DNA of 10,733 bases, taken from positions 1 to 10,733 of the IMG/VR virus record IMGVR_UViG_2740892112_000004; one strand, 5' to 3'. The stretch is from a virus. Lineage: Duplodnaviria; Heunggongvirae; Uroviricota; Caudoviricetes. The translations under genes and the position numbers were made by a program. The notes under the pieces were generated by a model. That model was not told the DNA's origin. It made no database searches and saw only the letters and a program-made list of their open reading frames with translations. Every line of letters begins with the position of its first letter. Positions within the stretch are counted from its first letter, which is position 1. This document shows positions 1-10,733 of the stretch, piece after piece.

Positions 1-165
1 ATGGCAAAGCCGATCATCACGCTCAATGGCCTAAAAATCGTCATTATGTTGGGAATGCTGGTCATTATTCTCTGCGGTATCCGTTTTGCCGCCGAGATTA
101 TCGTGCCGTTTATTCTCGCATTATTTATTGCTGTTATATATAACTCATTTCACTTAACACATTGA
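1..165 (+). pseudogene. 5' fragment of a membrane-transporter gene (N-terminus resembles AI-2E family exporter TqsA/YdgG as I recall it); probable chromosome/element junction
   Basis: ATG at 1, 46 codons of strongly hydrophobic sequence ([46 protein letters not shown]), then the frame changes character (YNSFHLTH) and stops at 163-165. AT-rich non-coding DNA follows. Family assignment is from memory. Confidence 0.45.
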
Positions 166-211
166 TTTAATTAAATAATTTTCACTACAAAAAGTGCCAT
201 AAATCGCAAAA

Positions 212-233
212 TGACTACACCAGTGACTACACC
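212..233 (+). repeat. Tandem direct repeat TGACTACACC x2 (12-bp period); candidate integrase arm-type sites
   Basis: tgactacacc at 212-221 and again at 224-233, about 75-95 bp from the putative junction; a related tcactacaa lies at 182-190. Function is inferred only. Confidence 0.3.
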
Positions 234-342
234 GTTCGGTGCACTGTATGAAACAACGTGGAACAAATAGACACAAGAAATATACAGGCGGGTCATCTTT
301 CCAGGGGGAAGCGCGCTAATTCATGAGGGGCGTTAATGTTGA

Positions 343-358
343 TATGGGGATCCCCATA
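343..358. repeat. 16-bp perfect palindrome TATGGGGATCCCCATA
   Basis: Read directly. A second hairpin follows at 367-384 (ACCGGA, T6 loop, TCCGGT). Confidence 0.5.
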
Positions 359-550
359 ACGGGGCTACCGGATTTTTTTCCGGTTAACTGTTAATCAGGC
401 TGGTGGGCTTTACCTGTTTTGTAGGAGTGGTCATTATGACCATTCAGACAATGACCTTAATCAGAACTTTTCGCTAAAAAATGGCGTTGGTCACGTCGTC
501 CGGAAAGCACAAAATCCCGTCAATTTTTAATTAACGGTTAAACCGTCTTT

Positions 551-600
551 TGTCACGGCGTGTCACTGGTTGTCACTCTCCGTCACGGTATGTCGCTACT
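551..600 (+). repeat. Five head-to-tail 10-bp units each beginning (T/C)GTC(A/G)C; candidate protein-binding array
   Basis: tgtcacggcg / tgtcactggt / tgtcactctc / cgtcacggta / tgtcgctact at exactly 10-bp phasing, ending just before the stop codon of the 603-884 ORF. Confidence 0.5.
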
Positions 601-602
601 CG

Positions 603-884
603 TTAACGCCGTAACCGCTCCGGCTTCTTCCAGTGGTACGTAATTTTCTCCGTTTCCCGATACAGTGCCACGCGGCGATTGTAGGCCAGCATTTCAAGAA
701 CGCGGATCCGTATGTTGCGCATATCCACATCATTAAGCTGGATACCATCACGGCGCATCACCTCAGCAACCACACGCGCGTAATTTTCGGCGGTCACGCT
801 GTCCGGCTGCGTGGCCTGTTCGTCATGCTGCTGGCTGATTCCGGTAACGCGGCGGATTAATCCCAGTAGTTCGGCTTCTGTCAT
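603..884 (-). CDS. Hypothetical protein, 93 aa
   Basis: ORF with a GGGGG Shine-Dalgarno about 5 nt upstream of the ATG at 884. No family recognised. Confidence 0.5.
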   Translation of the reverse strand: MTEAELLGLIRRVTGISQQHDEQATQPDSVTAENYARVVAEVMRRDGIQLNDVDMRNIRIRVLEMLAYNRRVALYRETEKITYHWKKPERLRR

Positions 885-920
885 TGTGCCCCCATCGCTC
901 TGATAGTCTGGTGTCGTCGG

Positions 921-1115
921 GTCCTTCCTGGAATTATGGCCCGTTACGGGGCGGCGACCTCGCGGTTTTTATCTGTTTATGAAAATTTTTCTGGAAAAAG
1001 CATGTCGGTACTTCTCGAACATAACTATTTGTTTTTAAATAGATACACAATAAAAAGAAACGACACGGTAATCATCTAAAATGGCGATTTATGACGCTTT
1101 CATGTCGTTTCTCAG
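921..1115 (+). other. Lambda-type cos site, copy A: cosQ-like flank, cosN (GGGCGGCGACCT at 949-960), and a cosB with R3/I1/R2/R1-like layout
   Basis: ccgttacgGGGCGGCGACCTcgcggtttttatctgtttatgaaaatttttctgg matches my recollection of the lambda cohesive-end region. R-site-like motifs: catgtcggtacttctc (1001-1016) and catgtcgtttctc (1101-1113) direct, agaaacgacacg (1055-1066) inverted, with an AT-rich IHF-like stretch between. Confidence 0.8.
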
Positions 1116-1139
1116 TTTTGTTCAATAATTGCGCGTCTG

Positions 1140-1682
1140 TTACTCGCCTTTCTTCTGTAGCAACTTTTCCGGTACGTTTCCGGTTGTTTCTTTCAAGTAA
1201 TCAGCCAGTATCTGTGGGAGGTTGTCGGCAACTCTGGCACTGGCATTACAGGCTTTAACCACTTCCCTTTTAAGCCTATCCAGCATGGCGGGGGTAATCT
1301 GTGGGAAGCTCCTTTGCATAGTAAGCGGGAGGCTGTCCATGATTGATGAAATCTGACTCGCCAGCTTTGAAAGCGCGTACAGGCAAAACTCAGTATCAAT
1401 CACGTCACCGCGATCGCGCTCGTTTTTAAGTTCCTGCGCCTCCGCCTGTGCTGTCAGTAATCTGATCCTGACTCGTAAGAGTTCATCATCATCAATATCG
1501 CCTTTGTCGTTTGTAAGCTGGCTAATTGCATTGTTAACCCTATTGTCTATCACGCTGGCAACATCGTAAAACGCCTCACGGCCTTTACGTTCAACGGGAG
1601 TCACTCCCCACTTGTCGAACGCTGTCGCACTTACACGGCAGCTTTTCGCCATGTTTTTTTTGTTCATCAGGTGCGATTTCAT
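1140..1682 (-). CDS. Terminase small subunit, lambda Nu1-like (175-180 aa; start could be 1682 or the Met at 1667)
   Basis: Full-length resemblance to lambda Nu1 as I recall it. N-terminal NKK..A......V.....W............G.E..YD.A.VI and central/C-terminal LTAQAEAQELKNERD ... TEFCLYALSKLASQISSIMDSLPLTMQRSFP. Similar length (Nu1 is 181 aa). No clear SD at either candidate start. Confidence 0.8.
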   Translation of the reverse strand: MKSHLMNKKNMAKSCRVSATAFDKWGVTPVERKGREAFYDVASVIDNRVNNAISQLTNDKGDIDDDELLRVRIRLLTAQAEAQELKNERDRGDVIDTEFCLYALSKLASQISSIMDSLPLTMQRSFPQITPAMLDRLKREVVKACNASARVADNLPQILADYLKETTGNVPEKLLQKKGE

Positions 1683-1683
1683 T

Positions 1684-1721
1684 AATACACCAACTTAATT
1701 ACTGCTTCAGGTTGGTGTATT
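1684..1721. promoter_or_regulatory. 11-bp perfect inverted repeat (AATACACCAAC ... GTTGGTGTATT, 16-bp spacer) abutting the terS start codon
   Basis: Read directly; complementary arms at 1684-1694 and 1711-1721. Confidence 0.35.
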
Positions 1722-1789
1722 GTTTGCATCTTTCCCTTTTCATTCATAAAGATAGAGCAAACAACAAAACCACCACCCCCCTGAAAAGG

Positions 1790-1850
1790 CTCATAAATAG
1801 CGAAAAACCGCGAGGTCGCCGCCCCGTAACGGGTCCATATGCCGGAAAGG
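1790..1850 (-). other. Lambda-type cos site, copy B (inverted relative to copy A): cosQ-like flank plus cosN (minus-strand GGGCGGCGACCT = plus 1813-1824), no recognisable R sites
   Basis: Minus strand reads tatgggtcctttccggcatatggacccgttacgGGGCGGCGACCTcgcggtttttcgctatttatga. About 85% identical to copy A over roughly 70 bp. Sequence beyond that, toward terS, diverges and lacks GTCGTTTC-type motifs. Confidence 0.75.
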
Positions 1851-1856
1851 ACCCAT

Positions 1857-1880
1857 AAAAAAAAGCCGGATTTCTCCGGC
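1857..1880 (-). terminator. Intrinsic terminator after the capsid operon
   Basis: Minus strand: GCCGGA-GAAA-TCCGGC hairpin followed by T8, immediately after the stop of the 1887-2300 ORF. Confidence 0.6.
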
Positions 1881-1886
1881 CTTGTC

Positions 1887-2300
1887 TCAGATGGTTTTCA
1901 GTATGCGATCGATGTCGCCGTCATCGCCCTGGTTTCTGCCATCGTATGCCATGCCAGCTGATACGGCTTGCGGGCTGTGCATGTCCATAAAGTTTTCAAA
2001 GGCTGCAGTAAGTTCCGGCGCAACCTTCGGACGTTCCTGCTCTATGGTCATGCTAAGGATGCTTTTAGCCGTACCAACATCGATACAAGGCACGTTTGCC
2101 ATTGCACGTAACAGCGGCTGATAGTCGCCAGATTCATCAAGCGCCATAATCGCATCAGCGCGCGGCTTGTCCTGCTCTTCCAGTTTGTTTAGTTGATATA
2201 CGGCCTCATAGGTTGATAAACCTCTGTCAGCCATTGCCCGCGCTTCGGCTTTAAATTTACTCGCCAGCGGTAGCGTCATGATGCTTTCATTCGTTGCCAT
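1887..2300 (-). CDS. Hypothetical protein, 137 aa (possibly head or packaging accessory by position)
   Basis: ORF with AGGGGGAA SD 4-5 nt upstream of ATG at 2300; last gene of the capsid operon. No family recognised. Confidence 0.5.
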   Translation of the reverse strand: MATNESIMTLPLASKFKAEARAMADRGLSTYEAVYQLNKLEEQDKPRADAIMALDESGDYQPLLRAMANVPCIDVGTAKSILSMTIEQERPKVAPELTAAFENFMDMHSPQAVSAGMAYDGRNQGDDGDIDRILKTI

Positions 2301-2312
2301 CGTTCCCCCTGC

Positions 2313-2648
2313 TTATCGGGCCAGCGGCTGAACGGATACGCCAGAACCCGCAAAGGCGGCGCATTTTTTCGCATCGGTGTCGACGCTCTCAGGCCAGTTA
2401 ACGGCGGCAATATTGAATATCCCCGTCTTGTAACACTGTGCTGATTTCTGCTTTGACGTGTCCACAGGGTACGAGGTCAGATAAACAGCCTTGCCAGATT
2501 CCTTACCATCCCACGGCTTAAACTCGCCATTGTCCGCCAGCATCAGCGGGGTAAATTCCTGAATAACGCCAGCATCAGCGGCAAAATGTACCAGCGTCGT
2601 GGCGACCTGCTGACTGCCTGCAAATAACTCAATGTATGGAGTGTCCAT
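2313..2648 (-). CDS. Head decoration protein, lambda gpD-like (111 aa)
   Basis: Motifs matching my recollection of lambda gpD: TPLMLAD, WDG, CYKTGIF, WPESVDTDAKKCAAFAGSGVSV (lambda: [38 protein letters not shown]). Similar length. GGGGGA SD. Confidence 0.75.
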   Translation of the reverse strand: MDTPYIELFAGSQQVATTLVHFAADAGVIQEFTPLMLADNGEFKPWDGKESGKAVYLTSYPVDTSKQKSAQCYKTGIFNIAAVNWPESVDTDAKKCAAFAGSGVSVQPLAR

Positions 2649-2659
2649 AGAATCCCCCG

Positions 2660-3715
2660 TTAACCAATTTTGACGGTAACAAATTTACGAATATCTGCCG
2701 GAACCGGCTGCGGTGCGCTGTGCGTCTGCACGTACTCAATCGCCGGATCGCCGTCCCCAATCCAGTTTTTCGGGTAAAACATGTTTTGCGTTGCGCCCGT
2801 TCTTACTGCGTCCTGATCCATAATCGCACCATAGGCCACCAGCCCTTTATTGTTGGTGTTGCCCAGAACCAGCAAATCAGGCTCAAGGAAATATTTTTCT
2901 GTGCCGTCGCTGTCAGTGTATTTGCCGGAATAGACGATAAGGGCAATATCGCCCAGATAGCCTTTAAAGCTCACCACTTCGCCCAGGTTTTTACAGGCCA
3001 GTTCGGCGGCGGACTCTGAACCACGGGAAAGATCGTACAGCTCACGGAATTTTTTAAAGCTGCGTAACGTGCGCCATACCTCAGCGCCCATAATCATGAC
3101 GTTTGCGGGGCAACCAGCCTGATCAGCATAAAGCTCGATGTCATAGATTGGGTCGTGCATGTCTTTATCCTGCTCGGACCATTTTTTACCCTTGGCCTGC
3201 TCTATGATGCAGTTTTCCGGTATTTTCCAGTCGATTTCATAGCGTTCTATGCCTTCGCCCTCAATGATGTTTTTTCCGGTCGTTATCGCATTCACCGCCA
3301 GCCATTCCACGCGCGCTTTAATGGCGTTTACCTGGCGGCGCATGTTGCCAGTAATCAGGCGCATACGGCGGTAGGTAGGGTCGTTAAGCTGTGCCGGATC
3401 TTCTCCAGCCATGCGCATGATGGTTTTCGTTGGATCGATTTCGTGCTTTGGCTTCATGTAGCCAGGTTTAATTGTGCTGGTTTCGTACCCTTTATCGCGC
3501 TGTACCTGGCTGCCAACCATAGGCGAACAAAACGCCGACATGGTGACTTCTTCAATGTCCAGGGTATCCAGCATGATGTTTTGCGTGCTGAATGTCGCCA
3601 CGTTCGGGAAAAACAGCGTAGTAAACAGAGGGTTGAATTTAAAATCCGCAATATCCCCGCGATTCAGGTACATGAAAAGCTGGTTAGTGTTAAGTGCCGT
3701 TGCTTTGCCTGTCAT
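2660..3715 (-). CDS. Major capsid protein, lambda gpE-like (351 aa)
   Basis: Collinear similarity to lambda gpE as I recall it: FKFNPLF..LFF, PGYMKPKHEIDP, DPTYRRMRLI, VSFKGYLGDIALIVYSGKY, LVLGNT, YPKNW..GDPA, SAP. GGGGGTGA SD. Start overlaps the upstream stop (TAATG). Confidence 0.8.
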   Translation of the reverse strand: MTGKATALNTNQLFMYLNRGDIADFKFNPLFTTLFFPNVATFSTQNIMLDTLDIEEVTMSAFCSPMVGSQVQRDKGYETSTIKPGYMKPKHEIDPTKTIMRMAGEDPAQLNDPTYRRMRLITGNMRRQVNAIKARVEWLAVNAITTGKNIIEGEGIERYEIDWKIPENCIIEQAKGKKWSEQDKDMHDPIYDIELYADQAGCPANVMIMGAEVWRTLRSFKKFRELYDLSRGSESAAELACKNLGEVVSFKGYLGDIALIVYSGKYTDSDGTEKYFLEPDLLVLGNTNNKGLVAYGAIMDQDAVRTGATQNMFYPKNWIGDGDPAIEYVQTHSAPQPVPADIRKFVTVKIG

Positions 3716-3921
3716 TATTCACCCCCGTGAACCTGATTCATACCCAGCGCCGCGCGTAAATAGGCGCGTACCTGCCAGCCTGTTGACGGCTCAACCATCG
3801 CCAGCGGATCAAGTCCTGCCGCAATGCCTGCTTTTACGTTCTGCTGGTGGCGTTCCTTGAGCGCCTTCACGATGTCGGGGCTGATGTACACCGAAACACC
3901 GCCTTTTTTCTCTTCAGCCAT
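3715..3921 (-). CDS. Hypothetical protein, 68 aa, first gene of the capsid operon
   Basis: ORF with AGAGGAA SD; stop overlaps the capsid gene start, suggesting translational coupling. No family recognised. Confidence 0.5.
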   Translation of the reverse strand: MAEEKKGGVSVYISPDIVKALKERHQQNVKAGIAAGLDPLAMVEPSTGWQVRAYLRAALGMNQVHGGE

Positions 3922-3944
3922 AGTAAGAAATTCCTCTTTGACTT

Positions 3945-3980
3945 AAAAAATCATAACTGGATGTTCATCCAGTTATGATT
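3945..3980 (-). terminator. 32-bp palindrome (15-bp perfect arms, 2-bp spacer, 3949-3980) followed on the minus strand by a U-run; terminator/attenuator or operator
   Basis: aatcataactggatg tt catccagttatgatt read directly; the minus-strand hairpin is followed by about 6 T. Confidence 0.45.
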
Positions 3981-4086
3981 ATAATCATGATTGCATTTTG
4001 TGCAATGATATTGAGTTGCGTTGCAAATTATGAAATGATTATCCCGATCATGTGTGTCAGTGCACCAAAAAACCTCATATGCAAAA

Positions 4087-4125
4087 GCCCGATAAGATGC
4101 CTCCTGTACTTATCGGGCTTTTTTT
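4087..4125 (+). terminator. Intrinsic terminator (stronger on the plus strand)
   Basis: GCCCGATAAG, 12-nt loop, CTTATCGGGC, then T7 at 4119-4125. Confidence 0.5.
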
Positions 4126-4131
4126 GGGTAC

Positions 4132-4153
4132 AAAAAAGCCGGATTACTCCGGC
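4132..4153 (-). terminator. Intrinsic terminator immediately after the perC-like gene
   Basis: Minus strand: GCCGGA-GTAA-TCCGGC followed by T6, starting 7 nt after the stop at 4160-4162. Confidence 0.6.
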
Positions 4154-4159
4154 TGTTGA

Positions 4160-4432
4160 TTAGCTGTCTGGGTAATTACGCCATATTTCATCGCTTACAC
4201 CATCTATACCCATTTCAGCATAAGTGCGATCTACTGCCTTTCTCAGGTCTCCGAAGTTATCCGGCGGCTCCGGTGGCTTCTGTGCCTTCCTGGAACATTC
4301 CAGCCGTCGCATCGTAACCTGATGCCGTTCCTTGTCTGTCTCCACCAGCAGCATGACTTCACCCCATCGCGCCGATGCCCTCCGGTAAAAGCCTTTTGCC
4401 TCGAGTTCCTCCGCTATGCGGTCATGTACCAT
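4160..4432 (-). CDS. PerC-family transcriptional regulator-like protein (90 aa; start at internal Met 4432 of the 4160-4552 ORF)
   Basis: MVHDRIAEELEAKGFYRRASARWGEVM fits the PerC-family N-terminal pattern as I recall it. GGGGGTGA SD 4 nt upstream of the 4432 ATG, which lies directly after the ssb stop; the longer ORF would overlap ssb by 110 nt. Confidence 0.5.
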   Translation of the reverse strand: MVHDRIAEELEAKGFYRRASARWGEVMLLVETDKERHQVTMRRLECSRKAQKPPEPPDNFGDLRKAVDRTYAEMGIDGVSDEIWRNYPDS

Positions 4433-4442
4433 CGTCACCCCC

Positions 4443-4853
4443 TCAGAACGGAATATCATCACCGTAGGGGTCATCGTCTCCCGCTGGTGGCTGATTACCC
4501 TGTGTGCCTGTGGTTTTGCGTCTGTTCCCGCCAGGACGTGCCGCACGGGCACTGATTACGCTGTCTGCAATAACCTGATAACCCTGCCGCGTTTCCCCGT
4601 TCTGTCCGGTCCACTGGCTGACCTGCATCGTGCCGGATACGCTGGCAACGTCGCCTTTTTGATGTTTAGCCAGGAAGTCGGCCTGCTTACCAAATGCGAT
4701 GACCGATAGCCATAACGTAGCCTGCCCATCCTGCGCCTGACTACATGGCAACGATACCGCCATACGTGCCAGCGTCATTGGTGTGCCCTTGCTGGTCTGT
4801 TTTACCTGCGGGTCGTCCACCAGCCGCCCGTAAGCTGCTATCTGTGCTGTCAT
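4443..4853 (-). CDS. ssb: Single-stranded DNA-binding protein (136 aa)
   Basis: OB-fold SSB pattern with the hallmark acidic C-terminal tip DDDPYGDDIPF. GGAGAGGTGG SD. ATGA start/stop overlap with the upstream gene. Confidence 0.85.
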   Translation of the reverse strand: MTAQIAAYGRLVDDPQVKQTSKGTPMTLARMAVSLPCSQAQDGQATLWLSVIAFGKQADFLAKHQKGDVASVSGTMQVSQWTGQNGETRQGYQVIADSVISARAARPGGNRRKTTGTQGNQPPAGDDDPYGDDIPF

Positions 4854-5101
4854 GATTCCACCTCTCCGGTTTTAACGTTGATGGTTGTCACCTGTTCAGC
4901 TTCCGCAATCTCCCGCTCTGTCAGCGTGGCAAAATTTGCCGCCGTCGTGGTCATGAATGCGCTTATCAGTTCGGGATGTGCTTTCGCGTATCCTTCCCCC
5001 GCGTGGCGGTCTATCGTTCTGATTGCCACCTTTAAGGCGTGCTCTGTCATGTCTAACGCTTTATATTTTGGCTCTGTTCTGTCTCTGTGTTTTTGAGTCA
5101 T
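4850..5101 (-). CDS. Hypothetical protein, 83 aa (start at internal Met 5101 of the 4850-5233 ORF)
   Basis: GAGGTGG SD before the 5101 ATG. The N-terminal extension of the longer ORF is a translation of the iteron repeats and is probably not coding. Confidence 0.45.
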   Translation of the reverse strand: MTQKHRDRTEPKYKALDMTEHALKVAIRTIDRHAGEGYAKAHPELISAFMTTTAANFATLTEREIAEAEQVTTINVKTGEVES

Positions 5102-5102
5102 T

Positions 5103-5306
5103 TGCCCACCTCTACCCACTTTTTTCGCCCACTTTTTACGTTTTCCCACTTCGTCCAACGTGGGAAATTTGGGATTTATATCATCTTGTTTCATAGGTAT
5201 TTTTTTAGTGCCCACTTTTTGGGATATATACACGTGGGAAAGTGGGTAATTTTGTTAAAATTCCGTTAAATCACCCACCTTTCCCACTTTTAATGCCCAC
5301 TTTTTA
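5103..5306. repeat. Iteron array, putative replication origin: at least 8 direct and 3 inverted copies of (G)CCCAC(TTTTT) with AT-rich spacers
   Basis: Direct copies near 5104, 5115, 5128, 5145, 5211, 5274, 5283, 5296; inverted GTGGGAAA/GTGGGTAA near 5160, 5234, 5242. Lies immediately 3' of the helicase gene. Confidence 0.6.
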
Positions 5307-6701
5307 CAGTGGTCCTACATCATCACCGTCAATGTAGATCACGTCGTCTTTTTCCAGTTTGGCTAACCATCGTTTAAGGTGTTTTGTGTCATACCCCAGC
5401 TTTTTCATATCGTCACGTAACAGCGGGATCGTGCACTTGTCGCCGTGCTGTGTGCGTGAACGTATGCATCCCCATAGCGCGGTATGGTTTTCCGTCTTGT
5501 TGCCTGCCTCCTCGATGCGCTCCAGTTCAACGGGAGGGCGCGGCTTATCCACCACCACCAGCGACGTGATTAACTCCCCGTCAGCGTCGGTAAAAAGCTC
5601 CACCACGCGTAAGTCATATGCGGCTTCTTTGAGTTCCTCCGCGTCCTTCATTTTGGTGCATGAGATAACCAGCGCTTCGCTTCCTGCGTCCTCCCTGCGT
5701 ATCCGGTATTCAGCATCCAGCGAAGCACGAAATGCACTGGAACCGCGCGCGCCTTTCGTCTCATCCTTGCCGGAATGGTGAACCACCAGCACCGTGGCCC
5801 CTGTGCGTCGTTTCAGTTCGTCACAACCACGGATAAACGCCCCCATATCACGGGAATCATTTTCATCATTACCACCAAAGCAACGCGCCAGCGTATCCAG
5901 AATAATCATGCGAACAGGTTTACCCGTTTCCCTCTCCACCTGACGGGCAGCGATAACCATTTCATCAACATCAAGCGGGACCGCCGGAAAGATGGGACGG
6001 TTTACCAGATACAGATTTTTCACCTGCTCACCGTGCACAACCTCCCAGGCTTTTACACGACGCGGAACGCCGATACCGCCTTCACCAACCACATAGAGAA
6101 CAGCGCCATGCGCCACCCTGCGGCCTCCCCACTGACGGCCCGTGGAAACGTGACACGCCCACGAACCCGCAAGGAATGATTTATAGGAACCGCTTGCCCC
6201 GTATATGCTGCATAGCGACGATGCCGGAATAATCCCCTTTACCACGTAATCTAATTGCGTGTCGTATCCGGCAGATCCAACGCTCATCGGTAGCGTGGTT
6301 TTTCGCTGGTGGTGTTCTTCCCCTGGCTTTTTCCCCCGCTCCCGTTCCAGATATTCGCGCCAGTTCTCCCGCTTCTGGCCGTGTATCCCTTCGGGGTAAT
6401 AATTCGCATCAGTTACGCCCGCCGCCGCCAGCTTGTGCGCAATGGCATTAATATTTGATGGCCTGATGTGGCCTGCCTTGTACAGCCGGACACAATAGCG
6501 CCCCTCGTCGATGATTCTCAGGTCTGCCAGTTCATCCAGTTGATCATCAGCCAGCACAATGGGAGGCACATTATCGCCAGCCAGTCGCCCGTCCTGTTCC
6601 TGCCACTGTTTCGCATGTGCCCACGCATCACTACCCGCAAAAATGATGACTTCGGTCATCTTGTCGTAAGGCTGTTTTTTTAAGTTCGGTGCGCTTTTCA
6701 T
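5304..6701 (-). CDS. Replication initiator/helicase, RepA-like (AAA_25-type RecA-fold ATPase), 465 aa
   Basis: Walker A-like GASGSYKS, Walker B-like RMIILDTLARCF, VLVVHHSGK motif typical of RepA/DnaB-like helicases. C-terminal about 80 aa could be a DNA-binding domain (inference). AGGGG SD. ATGA overlap with the upstream ORF. Confidence 0.75.
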   Translation of the reverse strand: MKSAPNLKKQPYDKMTEVIIFAGSDAWAHAKQWQEQDGRLAGDNVPPIVLADDQLDELADLRIIDEGRYCVRLYKAGHIRPSNINAIAHKLAAAGVTDANYYPEGIHGQKRENWREYLERERGKKPGEEHHQRKTTLPMSVGSAGYDTQLDYVVKGIIPASSLCSIYGASGSYKSFLAGSWACHVSTGRQWGGRRVAHGAVLYVVGEGGIGVPRRVKAWEVVHGEQVKNLYLVNRPIFPAVPLDVDEMVIAARQVERETGKPVRMIILDTLARCFGGNDENDSRDMGAFIRGCDELKRRTGATVLVVHHSGKDETKGARGSSAFRASLDAEYRIRREDAGSEALVISCTKMKDAEELKEAAYDLRVVELFTDADGELITSLVVVDKPRPPVELERIEEAGNKTENHTALWGCIRSRTQHGDKCTIPLLRDDMKKLGYDTKHLKRWLAKLEKDDVIYIDGDDVGPL

Positions 6702-6997
6702 TTCTTGCCCCTGAATCCGTTAATCATGGTTTTCAGCTTCTGGATGTTTGCCCGTGCCCTGGCGTTGCTGGTGGGCACGTTATGCGGCGCGGTCTGTACC
6801 AGAGAAAAATCACGCCGGAACTGATAAACAGGCATCACGCAATCATATTCGTAACCTTCACGGCGGTAAGTTACGCACCGTCCCGCCACGCCCTTAATCA
6901 TTACCGTGCCGCCGTACTGGTCGCGGTAAATATCACCGCGCATAAATTTAGGGTGAGTGTTGCCACTGGCAGTTAAGCCAGAATATTTAAGTTTCAT
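6698..6997 (-). CDS. Hypothetical protein, 99 aa
   Basis: ORF translationally coupled to the helicase gene (ATGA overlap); GGAGAA SD. No family recognised. Confidence 0.5.
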   Translation of the reverse strand: MKLKYSGLTASGNTHPKFMRGDIYRDQYGGTVMIKGVAGRCVTYRREGYEYDCVMPVYQFRRDFSLVQTAPHNVPTSNARARANIQKLKTMINGFRGKK

Positions 6998-7002
6998 TAT
7001 TT

Positions 7003-7236
7003 TTATTCTCCGGTGTGCTGTTCGTTATATCTGTCGTGCAATGTCTCTATTTCCTGCAACTCATTTATTACAGGCTCAAGAAGCGTTATTAATGATGTAA
7101 TAATCCGCGTTTTTTTTGCATTACGTTCATTATCGCCAAAGGATTCAAGGCACATCCGCAATATTTCGTACATACCTTCAGCGTAAGCAAGGGCACTAAA
7201 TGCGCGGTCTATTGTTTCAAGATAAATATCACGCAT
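7003..7236 (-). CDS. Hypothetical protein, 77 aa, net acidic
   Basis: ORF starting ATGCGTGAT (MRD), overlapping the upstream stop by 8 nt; GAGGA SD. Confidence 0.45.
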   Translation of the reverse strand: MRDIYLETIDRAFSALAYAEGMYEILRMCLESFGDNERNAKKTRIITSLITLLEPVINELQEIETLHDRYNEQHTGE

Positions 7237-7462
7237 GGCTTACATCCTCAGGAAATTTTCTTCTGTAACGCGCCTCTGCCACATATTCCGCATAATCGGC
7301 GGCGATATTCAGTACATCAAGTCCCGTTGATTTATATTCTTTCGTGGAAAGTAAGAAAAAAGCCGCTCTAATAAGTTCTGGCATTGACGAAAGCGCATCA
7401 GCCGCATCATCAGGAACGCCGGAAAATTCCTGTTTCAGGGAATTAAAACGATCATCACGCAT
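7229..7462 (-). CDS. Hypothetical protein, about 77 aa (start uncertain: Met at 7462 with poly-G SD, or 7489)
   Basis: ORF 7229-7489. The internal ATGCGTGAT start at 7462 overlaps the upstream stop by 8 nt and follows a G8 run on the minus strand. Confidence 0.4.
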   Translation of the reverse strand: MRDDRFNSLKQEFSGVPDDAADALSSMPELIRAAFFLLSTKEYKSTGLDVLNIAADYAEYVAEARYRRKFPEDVSHA

Positions 7463-7694
7463 AACCCCCCCCATTTTCACAATCAGCAATCAGGATAGCT
7501 TTGGCCTCATTCAGCGCCGTATCAGCACTAAATTGCATGACAGCCAGTGAGTGAGGAACGAAAGCACCGGCATATTCTGTTTCGCTGGTGGCGTGCTTAT
7601 GTGCCCTGTCCGCGATAACAGAAATATCAATCAGCGCGTGCATCAGCGTTTTGATGGCTTCGGCGGCTGCGTCCGGTGTGGTTTTATTGTGCAT
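7455..7694 (-). CDS. Hypothetical protein, 79 aa
   Basis: ORF with AGGGGA SD 7 nt upstream of ATG at 7694. The C-terminal GGG codons lie in the C8/G8 tract. Confidence 0.45.
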   Translation of the reverse strand: MHNKTTPDAAAEAIKTLMHALIDISVIADRAHKHATSETEYAGAFVPHSLAVMQFSADTALNEAKAILIADCENGGGYA

Positions 7695-7896
7695 AAAGCA
7701 TCCCCTGAATATTCGTGTTAATCATTCCGGCACGTTTTGTGATTTCCTGTAATGATTCCCTTGTGGCGACAATTGCTTCATCTGGTAAGTGGTAATTACA
7801 CACCACGCGACCTTTATCCACATTGACCAGTAGCTGCCCTGTGAATTTCTCACGAAACTGAATGCGGTTAAGGTCAGTAAGTGACAGATTAATCAT
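7684..7896 (-). CDS. Hypothetical protein, 70 aa (start at internal Met 7896 of the 7684-7938 ORF)
   Basis: Very good AGGAGGT SD 6 nt upstream of the 7896 ATG. Confidence 0.5.
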   Translation of the reverse strand: MINLSLTDLNRIQFREKFTGQLLVNVDKGRVVCNYHLPDEAIVATRESLQEITKRAGMINTNIQGMLYAQ

Positions 7897-8086
7897 GGCG
7901 CACCTCCTGACGAATACGGGCGGCAAATACAGCAACACAACCGGACGGGCAACGGTTACGCGCTTCGCGTTCCGTCCAGGCGGTTACGTGGATGATTTGA
8001 GATTCTCCGGCACTCAGTGCCAGAAAACGCCACACAAAGGCCGTTTGTGTGTGTACAAGGTGTGGTATATGATTTACAGCAACCAT
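7889..8086 (-). CDS. Hypothetical protein, 65 aa, first ORF of the long operon (start at internal Met 8086 of the 7889-8161 ORF)
   Basis: TAGGAG SD 6 nt upstream of the 8086 ATG; downstream of the predicted promoter and leader hairpin. Confidence 0.45.
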   Translation of the reverse strand: MVAVNHIPHLVHTQTAFVWRFLALSAGESQIIHVTAWTEREARNRCPSGCVAVFAARIRQEVRHD

Positions 8087-8117
8087 AACGGCTCCTAGTT
8101 TACGTTGTTGGTTAGAA

Positions 8118-8158
8118 GCCCTGCGAGTGGTAACGACACTTGCGGGGCTTTGTCTTTT
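8118..8158 (+). terminator. Strong 12-bp stem-loop; plus-strand terminator-like (followed by TTTGTCTTTT) and also a 5'-leader hairpin of the minus-strand operon transcript
   Basis: GCCCTGCGAGTG, 7-nt loop, CACTTGCGGGGC (two G-U pairs as RNA), T-rich tract on the plus strand. Confidence 0.35.
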
Positions 8159-8179
8159 CATCGATTACCTTGATAAAGG

Positions 8180-8259
8180 TGTCAGCCACTATATTAGTAA
8201 CGGGTGTCAGCCACGTCAATAGTGTTTTTCCGTTTTCTTGTGTGTATACTGTCAGCCAC
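8180..8259. promoter_or_regulatory. Three direct repeats (G)GTGTCAGCCAC; candidate operator sites in a divergent promoter region
   Basis: TGTCAGCCAC at 8180-8189, 8205-8214 and 8250-8259. The first overlaps the predicted minus-strand transcription start, the second sits in the promoter spacer, the third lies just downstream of a plus-strand TATACT (8245-8250). Confidence 0.5.
8191..8219 (-). promoter_or_regulatory. Sigma70-like promoter for the long minus-strand operon (-35 TTGACG, 17-bp spacer, -10 TAATAT)
   Basis: Minus strand reads TTGACG (plus 8214-8219), a 17-nt spacer, then TAATAT (plus 8191-8196). Predicted start near 8184. Confidence 0.5.
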
Positions 8260-8280
8260 CTAATAACGAGGAAATCAGAT

Positions 8281-8460
8281 ATGGCAACAAAAGCAGTTAA
8301 TGCAAAATCCAAAAAGCTTGAGGCTCGAGTACCACACGCAATAGCTGATGCTGTAGAAAATTTAAAGGAAGATGGCGAAAGTACAGGGCAATTTATCGTT
8401 TCGGCACTTGAAGGCGAGATCAAACGCCGCCAGCGCCGCAAGGCCAAAGAATCAGAATAA
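8281..8460 (+). CDS. Small putative DNA-binding protein, ribbon-helix-helix-like (59 aa; start at internal Met of the 8140-8460 ORF)
   Basis: GAGGAAA SD upstream of ATG 8281. KKLEARVPHAIADAVENL...GESTGQFIVSALEGEI resembles a beta-strand/helix/turn/helix RHH pattern; basic C-terminal tail. Fold assignment is tentative. Confidence 0.45.
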   Translation: MATKAVNAKSKKLEARVPHAIADAVENLKEDGESTGQFIVSALEGEIKRRQRRKAKESE

Positions 8461-8517
8461 TCACTATCAGCGCCGTGGTGTGAGGTATTACGGCGCATTG
8501 CTATGCAGGACAACACA

Positions 8518-8691
8518 ATGACCGATAAAGAATTGACCAAAACATTATCACCGGCACGGAAAAGACGGCGCAGAAAGATAGAGCATGAATCAGAAAGATT
8601 CGCGTCATGTGCTTTTGCCCTTGAGCAATTCCTTAAAGAGTACAGGGAAAAGCGCTCATTGCAGGTATGGCAACGAACTGAACCAGACTGA
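8518..8691 (+). CDS. Hypothetical small basic protein (57 aa; start at 8518, or 8503)
   Basis: AGGA SD 7 nt upstream of ATG 8518. Contains an ARKRRRRK tract. Followed by the terminator at 8787-8814. Confidence 0.4.
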   Translation: MTDKELTKTLSPARKRRRRKIEHESERFASCAFALEQFLKEYREKRSLQVWQRTEPD

Positions 8692-8786
8692 TTGCATTGC
8701 CCACCAGCCTGATAGCGGCTATCATCCCCGTGCTTATGTTTGGGATCACACACACAAACGGCGCAGCGGGTTATCTGTTCAGAAAG

Positions 8787-8814
8787 GCGGCTCCATTTCG
8801 GGGCCGCTTTTTTT
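8787..8814 (+). terminator. Rho-independent terminator ending the plus-strand two-gene module
   Basis: 8-bp GC-rich stem (GCGGCTCC / GGGGCCGC, one G-U), 5-nt loop, then T7 at 8808-8814. Confidence 0.7.
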
Positions 8815-8960
8815 ATACCTGAAAAACCCCAATTTTGTTGTTTTTCAGTTTCACCAGGGCGAACGAATCCCCGCCCACGTTCTGGCGTATATTCAATCTT
8901 CATGGTTATAGCTCTGTGTTCAGATGATTGATGTGTGGCGGCTGCGTGCCGCCAGCGTGA

Positions 8961-9149
8961 TTAATGAACTGCCTTGCAGCTATCCTTCCAGGCCAGAACC
9001 TCGGATAAAGACCAGCCAACGGAACGACCGCCAAGTTTACGACGTGATGGGAATTGTCCGGCCTTTTCCAGGCGGTAGCGACACGTACGGCTAAGGCCGG
9101 TTAGTTTTTCGCATTCTTTTTCACGTATAAACCGATCAGTGCTTAACAC
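8961..9149 (-). CDS. alpA: AlpA-family DNA-binding protein (prophage CP4-57-type regulator/excisionase-like), 62 aa
   Basis: Helix-turn-helix pattern typical of AlpA/Vis proteins (LTGLSRTCRYRLEKAGQFPSRRKLGGRSVGWSLSEVLAW). AAGGGGGGG SD. Lies immediately downstream of int on the same strand. Confidence 0.8.
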   Translation of the reverse strand: MLSTDRFIREKECEKLTGLSRTCRYRLEKAGQFPSRRKLGGRSVGWSLSEVLAWKDSCKAVH

Positions 9150-9482
9150 TATTGCCCCCCCTTTCGTTTCTTAAAGAGTCATCAGGTGTCTTATTGTGTC
9201 GTATTGTTCCCGCTAGAGTGATGAATGGCAAATATTGAGGATGTATGATTTACAGAAAATGAAACAGTAAGAATAAAATCTTTTAAATTCATGTTAATAC
9301 AAAGGCATAAAATATTGTTTCATGCCTTTTTTCTCGCTCTTTAAAGAGTGATTCGCTAGTGTATAAAAAACCAGTGACACATTAAAAATCAGCCACTTAT
9401 AAATCTGTATGCTTTTTCGCCTCTTGTTCGTGGTTGTTCCACATTGTTGCTCATTGTTGCACGTTGTATCTGTTCGCATATA

Positions 9483-9498
9483 CAGTATGCGCATACTG
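9483..9498. repeat. 16-bp perfect palindrome CAGTATGCGCATACTG between int and alpA
   Basis: Read directly; 18 bp downstream of the int stop codon. Confidence 0.5.
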
Positions 9499-9515
9499 AA
9501 AAAACACGAAAAAAA

Positions 9516-10733
9516 TTATTTTCTTCTGGCTACTGGTAGCGTGGTTACGTTTTCATGTGTTCCCGCCAGTATCCCTAACCGCTCCGTCCACATATCCAGC
9601 GCATTGCGTTTAGCATCCAGATAACGGGAATGATTATAAACTCGCTGCATTCCTGGCATCTGGTGGCCTGTAAGCTGCTCCACGACATGCGGATCAACGC
9701 CTAAATCGTTCAGCATGGTTGTAAAGGTGCGCCGGATGTCATGCAGTGACCAGTGAGGATGATTAAGCCTCCTGTGCGCTAATCTTCCATACTGCGATAC
9801 GCTGGCCTCCTGTTTCACTTCCCCCAGCAATAAGCCCGTGTGCCTGTTCTGCTCCACCAGCTGCGTGACGAACGGCAGGATCGCTTCCGGTATGGGCCGG
9901 AATATTGCGACCTTCGTTTTGCTGTGCTCCTTCGGAACGGTCCATAGCATTTCCGTAAAATCCCACTCCCCGATCTCCGATAACCTCAGTTCTACCGTTC
10001 TGGCTCCGAAGACAATCAGGAGGCGGATTAACGCGACGTAGTAAGGGGAGAATATTTTTTTGTCCAGTGCCTGCAATAATTCGCCAAGTTCTTTGTTACT
10101 TAAGACACGTTCGCTTATATCCGGTTTTTTCCCAACGTCCGCCACGTTCAGATCGTCCAGAACGTTGCTGATTGCATAGCGCCGCCTACGGCAGAACTTA
10201 AGCGCCTGTTTGCACGCCTGTAGCACGAATCCGGCAGTAACAGGCGTTCGCTTTGCCACCTGGTCAAAACAGGCCAGCCAGTGCCGTAGCTCGCATTTAT
10301 CCAGCGGCATAGCACCAATCTGCTGTATTACGTGATTATTAAGTCGCCTTTTCAGGGCGATATAATCCACGCGGTTTTCCTTTACGTAATACTCAAGCCA
10401 GTAGGTGAGCGCATCGCCAACCGTTACCGGCTTTAACGCTTCCTGTACGGTGTAATTAAGCTCATGACGTGGATTTTTCCCCTCTGCCAGCCATGCGCGA
10501 CACTGGGCGGCTTTTTCCCTGGCTGATTTCAGGCTCAGATCAGGATAACTTCCCAGCTTAATGCGTTCGGGTCGTGTCTCCCTTCCCGTTCCGGCCCTGT
10601 ATGTGAAATACCAGGTCAATTTCCCTGATGTTAAATATTTCACGCTCAGGTTTCCGCCATCACTATAAAACGTGTTTTTCTCCGCTGGCTTACCATGAAG
10701 TTTCCTTAGCAAGGTATCGCTCAGTTTGTTCAT
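9516..10733 (-). CDS. int: Tyrosine site-specific integrase, P4-type (405 aa)
   Basis: N-terminal arm-binding-type region (DGGNLSVKYLTSGKLTWYFTYR). Catalytic-domain pattern with conserved Arg (FGARTVELRLSE), His/Arg box (WSLHDIRRTF) and C-terminal Tyr region (RVYNHSRY). ATG is the last three bases of the window on the minus strand. Confidence 0.9.
   Translation of the reverse strand: MNKLSDTLLRKLHGKPAEKNTFYSDGGNLSVKYLTSGKLTWYFTYRAGTGRETRPERIKLGSYPDLSLKSAREKAAQCRAWLAEGKNPRHELNYTVQEALKPVTVGDALTYWLEYYVKENRVDYIALKRRLNNHVIQQIGAMPLDKCELRHWLACFDQVAKRTPVTAGFVLQACKQALKFCRRRRYAISNVLDDLNVADVGKKPDISERVLSNKELGELLQALDKKIFSPYYVALIRLLIVFGARTVELRLSEIGEWDFTEMLWTVPKEHSKTKVAIFRPIPEAILPFVTQLVEQNRHTGLLLGEVKQEASVSQYGRLAHRRLNHPHWSLHDIRRTFTTMLNDLGVDPHVVEQLTGHQMPGMQRVYNHSRYLDAKRNALDMWTERLGILAGTHENVTTLPVARRK

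Follow-up and report, generated by a model that had tools for sequence, protein, structure and literature searches.

The locus analysed here raises the question of what a phage satellite does with a small set of head genes of its own. The window, i.e. the whole stretch of 10,733 nucleotides (IMG/VR record IMGVR_UViG_2740892112_000004, positions 1 to 10,733), is a Gram-negative phage-inducible chromosomal island (PICI) of the EcCICFT073 family, an integrase/AlpA/RepA island inserted in tqsA. Between positions 1887 and 3921 it carries four minus-strand open reading frames (ORFs) encoding, in the order in which they are read, a 68-aa protein (3715–3921), a 351-aa lambda gpE-like capsid protein (2660–3715), a 111-aa gpD-like decoration protein (2313–2648) and a 137-aa protein (1887–2300). 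A preliminary description of this DNA had placed the four ORFs correctly and had recognised the capsid and decoration proteins, it found no homology for the 68-aa and 137-aa proteins and proposed them as candidates for capsid-size determination, a minimal scaffold or interference with helper capsid assembly. Our analysis confirms the observation and partly supports this interpretation. By sequence, the 137-aa protein is a homolog of the Nu3/gp6-type scaffolding proteins, the operon is maintained by purifying selection and its gene order was seen only in satellite islands, hence we consider it probable that the operon is an accessory shell kit.

The identities of the two larger proteins are clear from profile searches. 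The 351-aa protein belongs to the lambda gpE major capsid protein family (PF03864, 1.7e-50; 172.4 bits against a cut-off of 22.9, residues 27–349), with end-to-end identities of 43% to lambda gpE and 44% to phage 21 gp7. The 111-aa protein is a head decoration protein of the lambda gpD/phage 21 SHP family (PF02924, 2.5e-17; 63.5 bits, cut-off 29.1), 36% identical to gpD and 43% to SHP. Lambda, phage 21 and Gifsy-1 share the order C/Nu3-D-E, whereas in the window and in the same-lineage islands examined E comes before D, and the genes read toward cosN (1813–1824) and terS (1140–1682), as the preliminary description had noted. A further protein (P0110, 463 aa, 56% identity to the window capsid) contains both capsid E and decoration D domains. 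Either the two are fused in nature or the stop codon between them has been lost on a short contig, and both fit the E-then-D order.

The 137-aa protein, encoded by the fourth gene of the operon, matched the C-terminus of PHROG 53 (‘head maturation protease’, positions 495–567 of 583, E 1e-8), and a tblastn search of 50,697 phage records hit 19 of them, always within the scaffold stretch that gpC and Nu3 of phage 21-like phages have in common; 18 of the 19 records carry an annotation to that effect. BLASTP against phage 21 gp6 gave 37% identity (E 4e-11). Profile-profile comparison by hhalign supported the scaffold match with 95.9% probability, rising to 97.6% (E 3.9e-12, 127 columns) once a homolog from a second satellite lineage was added. 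This homolog, a 141-aa protein occupying the same slot in locus L092, is 29% identical to the 137-aa protein and itself matched the phage Nu3 hidden Markov model at 4.8e-13. The alignment pairs residues 6–135 of the island protein with residues 69–198 of gp6, i.e. nearly its whole length with the C-terminal two-thirds of gp6, and the two proteins have in common two Nu3 repeat motifs and a phage 21-type C-terminal tail (FE.FM..HSP); the first repeat of gp6 and a protease domain are both missing from the 137-aa protein. Pairwise comparison with lambda gpC/Nu3 detected no similarity, and the link to Nu3 runs through the phage 21-type scaffolds. Lambda gpNu3 itself is reportedly intrinsically disordered, going by the title of one paper.

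The genetic setting of this putative stand-alone scaffold differs from that of its phage counterparts. Nu3 and gp6 are read in frame from within the 3′ portion of an S49 protease gene that precedes D and E, whereas the 137-aa protein has a separate gene located after coat and decoration, so the homology of this scaffold type is present and the nesting is not. The name given to this family in NCBI records, ‘phage head-tail connector protein’, is not supported by any model, as no Pfam or NCBIfam connector or adaptor family matched the protein. We rejected a connector identity, all detected homology being to scaffold regions once labelled ‘head-tail preconnector’ gp5/gp6, of which the database name is probably an echo and a misnomer. 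A Nu3 motif that seemed visible by eye in the 68-aa Salmonella and 77-aa Pluralibacter proteins encoded after the decoration gene was rejected on comparison by hhalign (0.2%).

To assess whether these genes are maintained, we used 85 loci, comprising 80 from IMG/VR and five others, with the ratio of non-synonymous to synonymous substitution (dN/dS) calculated by the Nei–Gojobori method and the same sequences read out of frame as controls. The 68-aa gene is intact in 83 of the 85 loci, the 68-aa, capsid and decoration genes as a group in 82–83, and the 137-aa gene in 72. All four are under purifying selection, with dN/dS values of 0.24 (68-aa), 0.13 (capsid), 0.10 (decoration) and 0.28 (137-aa), compared with 1.1–2.8 in the out-of-frame controls. 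Chance ORFs and pseudogenes are therefore excluded, including the option that the gpE-like gene is a non-expressed pseudogene. The module is found in 598 of 5,426 complete E. coli genomes.

Relatives of the capsid protein with 51–87% identity occur in E. coli, Salmonella, Edwardsiella, Lelliottia, Serratia and others. Wherever the context of a relative was examined, the gene belonged to a PICI-type island in which capsid precedes decoration, a lineage spanning 51–100% identity. The 68-aa and Nu3-like genes travel with capsid lineages of at least 64% identity, while in lineages at 51–56% the decoration gene is followed by that of an AlpA-like helix-turn-helix protein instead; the Salmonella and Pluralibacter proteins encoded at this position are unrelated to Nu3. 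Capsid patterns scanned twice against species-representative genomes gave no hits. As the relatives at 51–64% identity are all in PICI-type islands with the E-D order and no capsid protein in the phage collection exceeds 47%, long-term maintenance inside satellites is indicated. Furthermore, the module has diverged from phage 21 to about the same extent throughout (identities of 44% for coat, 43% for cement, 37% for scaffold and 33% for the small terminase subunit TerS), and this near-equal divergence is more in keeping with a satellite module that is old and has diverged together than with recent mimicry of a helper.

The preliminary description had missed that satellites with capsid and decoration genes are a known family, hence the existence of the module is not new. 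In EcCICFT073 the capsid and head decoration proteins are encoded by c1499 and c1500, respectively, and induction, packaging and transfer of this island by helper phage have been shown (PMC6092414). It also has two cos sites, with c1503 (rppA) between them (PMC6739421). Capsid genes are present in 21 of 29 reference Gram-negative PICIs, where they were described as unneeded for transfer (bioRxiv 10.1101/2022.07.18.500453), and our literature search found no later paper giving them a function. The window closely resembles EcCICFT073 and related cos-type PICIs (Fillol-Salom et al. 2018 ISME J, PMC6092414; 2019 Mol Cell, PMC6739421) in its sequence of int, alpA, replication module, capsid, decoration and a packaging gene between cos sites, and in its two cos sites, size of about 10–11 kb and lambdoid helpers. 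A Nu3-type gene after the decoration gene and a conserved 68-aa partner are undescribed in the papers searched. The present analysis contributes the recognition of the fourth gene as a scaffold homolog, the coupled orphan, the evidence of selection and a gene order specific to satellites. The capsid gene of most Gram-negative PICIs has been puzzling since 2018 because single deletions were silent, it can now be placed in a selected, apparently co-transcribed kit in which the coat is accompanied by cement, a Nu3-type scaffold and an orphan strictly coupled to it, with a gene order that we encountered in the examined satellite islands only. The analysis also shows that ‘head-tail connector’, as the scaffold homolog is called in databases, is a misleading name.

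We therefore come to what the operon, with the gene identities, junctions, synteny, intactness and selection described here, might do. On balance it is probably an accessory, island-encoded shell kit (coat, cement and scaffold) of an EcCICFT073-family PICI in tqsA. Under this model, induction of the helper would lead to expression of one regulated unit comprising the 68-aa protein, coat, cement and scaffold, with the 68-aa gene translationally coupled to the capsid gene. The kit would then assemble on the portal, with the protease, large terminase and tails also coming from the helper, and the island coat could be used alone or mixed with the helper coat protein. Its role would be accessory rather than essential, as a helper can provide the same functions, and this redundancy would explain both the silent single deletions with lambda and phi80 and the occasional loss of the scaffold gene. 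The gene content separates the window from the capsid-forming PICIs (cf-PICIs, e.g. EcCIEDL933). Like them it has a major capsid protein and a small terminase of its own, however, the gene set of cf-PICIs extends to portal, protease, head-tail connectors, HNH and large terminase, and they form small capsids of their own (bioRxiv 10.1101/2022.09.08.507074), and in the window portal, protease, connectors, HNH and large terminase were not found, so it does not classify as a cf-PICI.

Several points weigh against a shell kit. We infer its assembly into particles from the genes alone. In EcCICFT073, deletion of c1499 or c1500 left lambda interference and transfer unchanged, and the packaged DNA was all phage-sized (PMC6092414), and when post-ori genes were expressed singly, those other than rppA had no effect on lambda (PMC6739421). 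The scaffold call itself derives from sequence only and involves an Ala-rich, repetitive motif, and the AlphaFold model of the 137-aa protein, although helical, is of low confidence (pLDDT, predicted local distance difference test, 44) and too poor for a fold search. The scaffold gene is moreover dispensable in nature. It is the least retained of the four, with four clean deletions and two frameshifts (loci L022, L027, L029, L051, L054 and L055), the deletion loci having cosN 128–176 bp past the stop codon of the decoration gene, and variants P0025, P0028 and P0029 show an exact in-frame loss of 44 residues between the two repeat motifs. Finally, the two Pluralibacter loci examined (L005, 8207–9270; L006, 7785–8838) have a capsid gene that is either broken into two parts (179 + 170 aa) or not called, with the 68-aa and decoration genes intact. 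These two loci share flanking genes and are probably one island variant. The Pluralibacter island additionally carries a lambda gpI-like tail assembly gene (L005, 10494–11078; phrog_32, 8e-75).

The arrangement of the operon is consistent with expression as one unit. The four ORFs form what is, on sequence features, an insulated transcription unit, with a TATAAT and a leader hairpin upstream and a terminator downstream, directly before cosN and terS. The preliminary description had seen overlapping stops and starts, indicating coupled translation, this held at a single junction, the TAATG shared by the 68-aa and capsid genes, which 82 of 82 loci retain. At the remaining two junctions the genes are separated by gaps of 11–13 nt with G-rich Shine-Dalgarno sequences (SDs). 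An intrinsic terminator on the minus strand (1862–1883, GGCCGGA-GAAA-TCCGGC followed by a T-run) ends the operon and is kept 3′ of the 137-aa gene across loci. At the other end, two terminator hairpins 3′ of perC separate that gene from the capsid operon.

All five divergent islands compared, which come from E. coli, Salmonella and Pluralibacter, have the candidate −10 box of the capsid operon (TATAAT, 3978–3983, minus strand), as do 31 of 32 unique upstream sequences, the exception reading TGTAAT. Upstream of it is a weak −35 embedded in a TTGCA-N5-TGCAA palindrome. Palindromes of this type (approximately 3985–4030, minus strand) overlap and precede the −35, are kept in E. coli, Salmonella and Pluralibacter islands and look like a candidate site for a dimeric regulator. 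A PerC homolog encoded immediately upstream of the operon is a candidate regulator of this weak −35 promoter. A second kind of palindrome (3949–3980, minus strand), with a 14-bp stem followed by a T-run and a terminator-like score, is located between this box and the SD that precedes the 68-aa gene; leader hairpin, insulating terminator and operator are all conceivable roles for it. Its core, ACTGGAT/ATCCAGT, is kept across genera and 94.6% of cells are paired with two compensatory pairs, the covariation score being reached by four of 500 shuffles. One pair is unpaired in eight of 16 sequences, and the covariation evidence is suggestive only. The upstream region had no counterpart in phage genomes.

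The 68-aa protein, first in the operon (3715–3921, minus strand; phrog_3255, unknown function), is the member of the module for which the original impression of no recognisable homology stood. Judged from database searches, it is a tiny, satellite-specific orphan family. Among 1.84 billion sequences only 14 representatives matched at E ≤ 1e-3, 13 of which are short (29–99 aa), the remaining one being a weak, repetitive match within a 1,264-aa protein. Comparison by hhalign with lambda W (also 68 aa), FI, FII, Nu1, B, C, D and E, the phage 21 equivalents and other island proteins gave probabilities below 3% throughout, and a fold search with the predicted model returned no match.

Of the alternatives, the one that survives best concerns this protein and not the operon as a whole. 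The 68-aa protein might be a small DNA-binding regulator, e.g. of the ribbon-helix-helix type, acting on the operon through the palindromes 5′ of its own gene. The predicted topology of strand(s)-helix-helix (pLDDT 73), the position of the gene at the head of the operon and the location of the conserved palindromes, one kind overlapping the −35 and the other sitting between the −10 box and the SD, are all consistent with such a role. Ribbon-helix-helix proteins gave neither a sequence nor a fold match to the 68-aa protein, and its alleles offered no covariation readout with palindrome or capsid alleles, as both alleles have the same partners. We consider a regulatory function unlikely, it is nevertheless a live option, if weaker than the shell kit.

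A second alternative is that the proteins redirect capsid size and thereby interfere with the helper, the coat homolog acting like SaPIbov5 Ccm and the scaffold like SaPI1 CpmB, so that small heads would fit the island of approximately 11 kb and exclude the helper genome. A satellite with both coat and scaffold homologs does parallel known redirection systems (Ccm is discussed in PMC6092414), SaPIbov5 Ccm being a satellite-encoded homolog of a helper coat protein and CpmB, of SaPI1 CpmA/CpmB, a scaffold-like protein. By calculation, a T=3 or T=4 head would fit about one or two island copies. In addition, the phage 21-specific tail of the scaffold and the match of the cos region to phage 21-like phages suggest that lambda and phi80 may not be the natural helpers. 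Ccm and CpmA/CpmB, however, have no sequence relationship to the window proteins, and while they redirect helper capsid size, the EcCICFT073 prototype packaged with lambda contained only phage-sized DNA, and deleting c1499 or c1500 did not relieve interference (PMC6092414). Among post-ori genes expressed singly, rppA alone inhibited lambda (PMC6739421). Moreover, scaffold and coat have diverged from phage 21 to the same degree, pointing to service to the island’s own coat and not mimicry of a helper scaffold. The proposal of size determination or helper interference made in the preliminary description is thus unsupported, with the prototype in lambda and phi80 arguing against it, and such a function would be possible only with helpers other than these two; overall we regard it as doubtful.

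A more speculative version, which we rate as improbable, would make EcCICFT073-type PICIs intermediates between capsid-stealing satellites and cf-PICIs. With natural phage 21-like helpers, coat, cement, scaffold and 68-aa protein would build satellite-specific, possibly smaller shells on the helper portal, the 68-aa protein being a new assembly or size factor, and the phenotype would have been missed with lambda and phi80 and with deletions made one at a time.

A third alternative is a backup, in which the island head genes are an insurance copy that replaces or buffers disrupted or targeted helper functions, as related satellites integrate in late genes of helpers, often in E. Helper-embedded satellites of this family have been reported, mostly in gene E, and their authors propose a backup role (bioRxiv 10.1101/2022.07.18.500453). 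Embedded contexts, in late regions of prophages, were present in our dataset too: in L007 (157–1284) the island adjoins a truncated GpA_ATPase gene, in L095 (1–2167 and 13183–17032) it lies within P2-like tail genes, and three IMG/VR loci have gpC/Nu3-like ORFs of 283–501 aa downstream. These contexts match the published idea of helper-embedded satellites, here apparently also in a P2-like prophage. The window island, however, is in chromosomal tqsA and not in a prophage, and its coat is only ~44% identical to lambdoid helper coats, which makes functional replacement uncertain. For the helper-embedded relatives a backup role is live but weaker than the shell kit, and as a general explanation we think it has little chance of being right.

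The last alternative, that the operon is what is left of a defective lambdoid prophage, decaying and without any present function, could point to the silent single-gene deletions in EcCICFT073 and to a head-gene set lacking portal, protease and large terminase, but it is effectively refuted by the selection analysis (dN/dS of 0.10–0.28 against controls above 1, with genes intact in nearly all of the 85 loci), by the conservation of SDs, overlap, upstream elements and terminator, and by the maintenance of the capsid-decoration pair in satellites across genera at 51–100% identity, making it extremely improbable.

Downstream of the operon, the packaging cassette is bracketed by two cos sites. Cos site 1 (1784–1854, minus strand) contains the cosN 12-mer at 1813–1824, the exact lambda cohesive-end sequence GGGCGGCGACCT, and its region is 83–96% identical to the cosN region of phage 21-like phages. 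Cos site 2 is inverted (919–989, plus strand) and carries a second copy of cosN at 949–960, the two sites forming the arms of a 71-nt inverted repeat that flanks terS. The enclosed gene (1140–1682, minus strand) encodes a Nu1-like TerS of 180 aa (PF07471, 2.3e-23), which is 35% identical to lambda Nu1 over residues 6–166 and 33% identical to phage 21 gp1; it had no sequence match among solved structures, including Rpp. Unlike the window with its near-full-length Nu1-like TerS, other islands in our dataset have a protein of ~144 aa at this position. Across 80 loci, the cos-bracketed cassette contained either a Nu1-like TerS of 180–184 aa or a protein of ~144–146 aa resembling only the Nu1 N-terminus, so from its sequences the cassette looks swappable.

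The remaining content of the window is that of a PICI, with its functionally relevant genes all on the minus strand. Those upstream of the operon comprise a tyrosine integrase at one island end (9516–10733; PF00589 and PF13356), an AlpA regulator (8961–9149; PF05930, 5e-17), and, from profile searches, a DUF4222 protein (6698–6997), a RepA-type AAA_25 helicase (5304–6701) and a single-stranded DNA-binding protein (4443–4853), followed by the PerC-family transcriptional activator homolog (4160–4552, with its start probably near 4432; PF06069, 1.6e-44). Beyond cos site 2 is a conserved 93-aa ORF (603–884; phrog_1561, 1e-56), which is part of the canonical architecture of most loci. The features expected of a PICI were thus found, i.e. 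an end integrase at a specific chromosomal site, alpA, an own replication module, small size (about 10–20 kb), and cos with TerS. Positions 1–165 of the window are the 5′ fragment of tqsA, and a copy of the island in E. coli 042, 95.7% identical to the window, interrupts the same gene. Profile searches of Pfam/PHROG type detected no portal, protease, large terminase, tail or lysis families among the window ORFs, and a search of the whole window against Rfam gave no match. One region differs in strand signal, with positive GC skew over 8100–8900, where a plus-strand ORF of 106 aa (8140–8460) overlaps a minus-strand ORF of 263 aa (8112–8903). In the corresponding part of related islands, the RefSeq annotation has a plus-strand YlcI/YnfO-family gene and Icd-like genes, hence the 263-aa minus-strand ORF is probably spurious.

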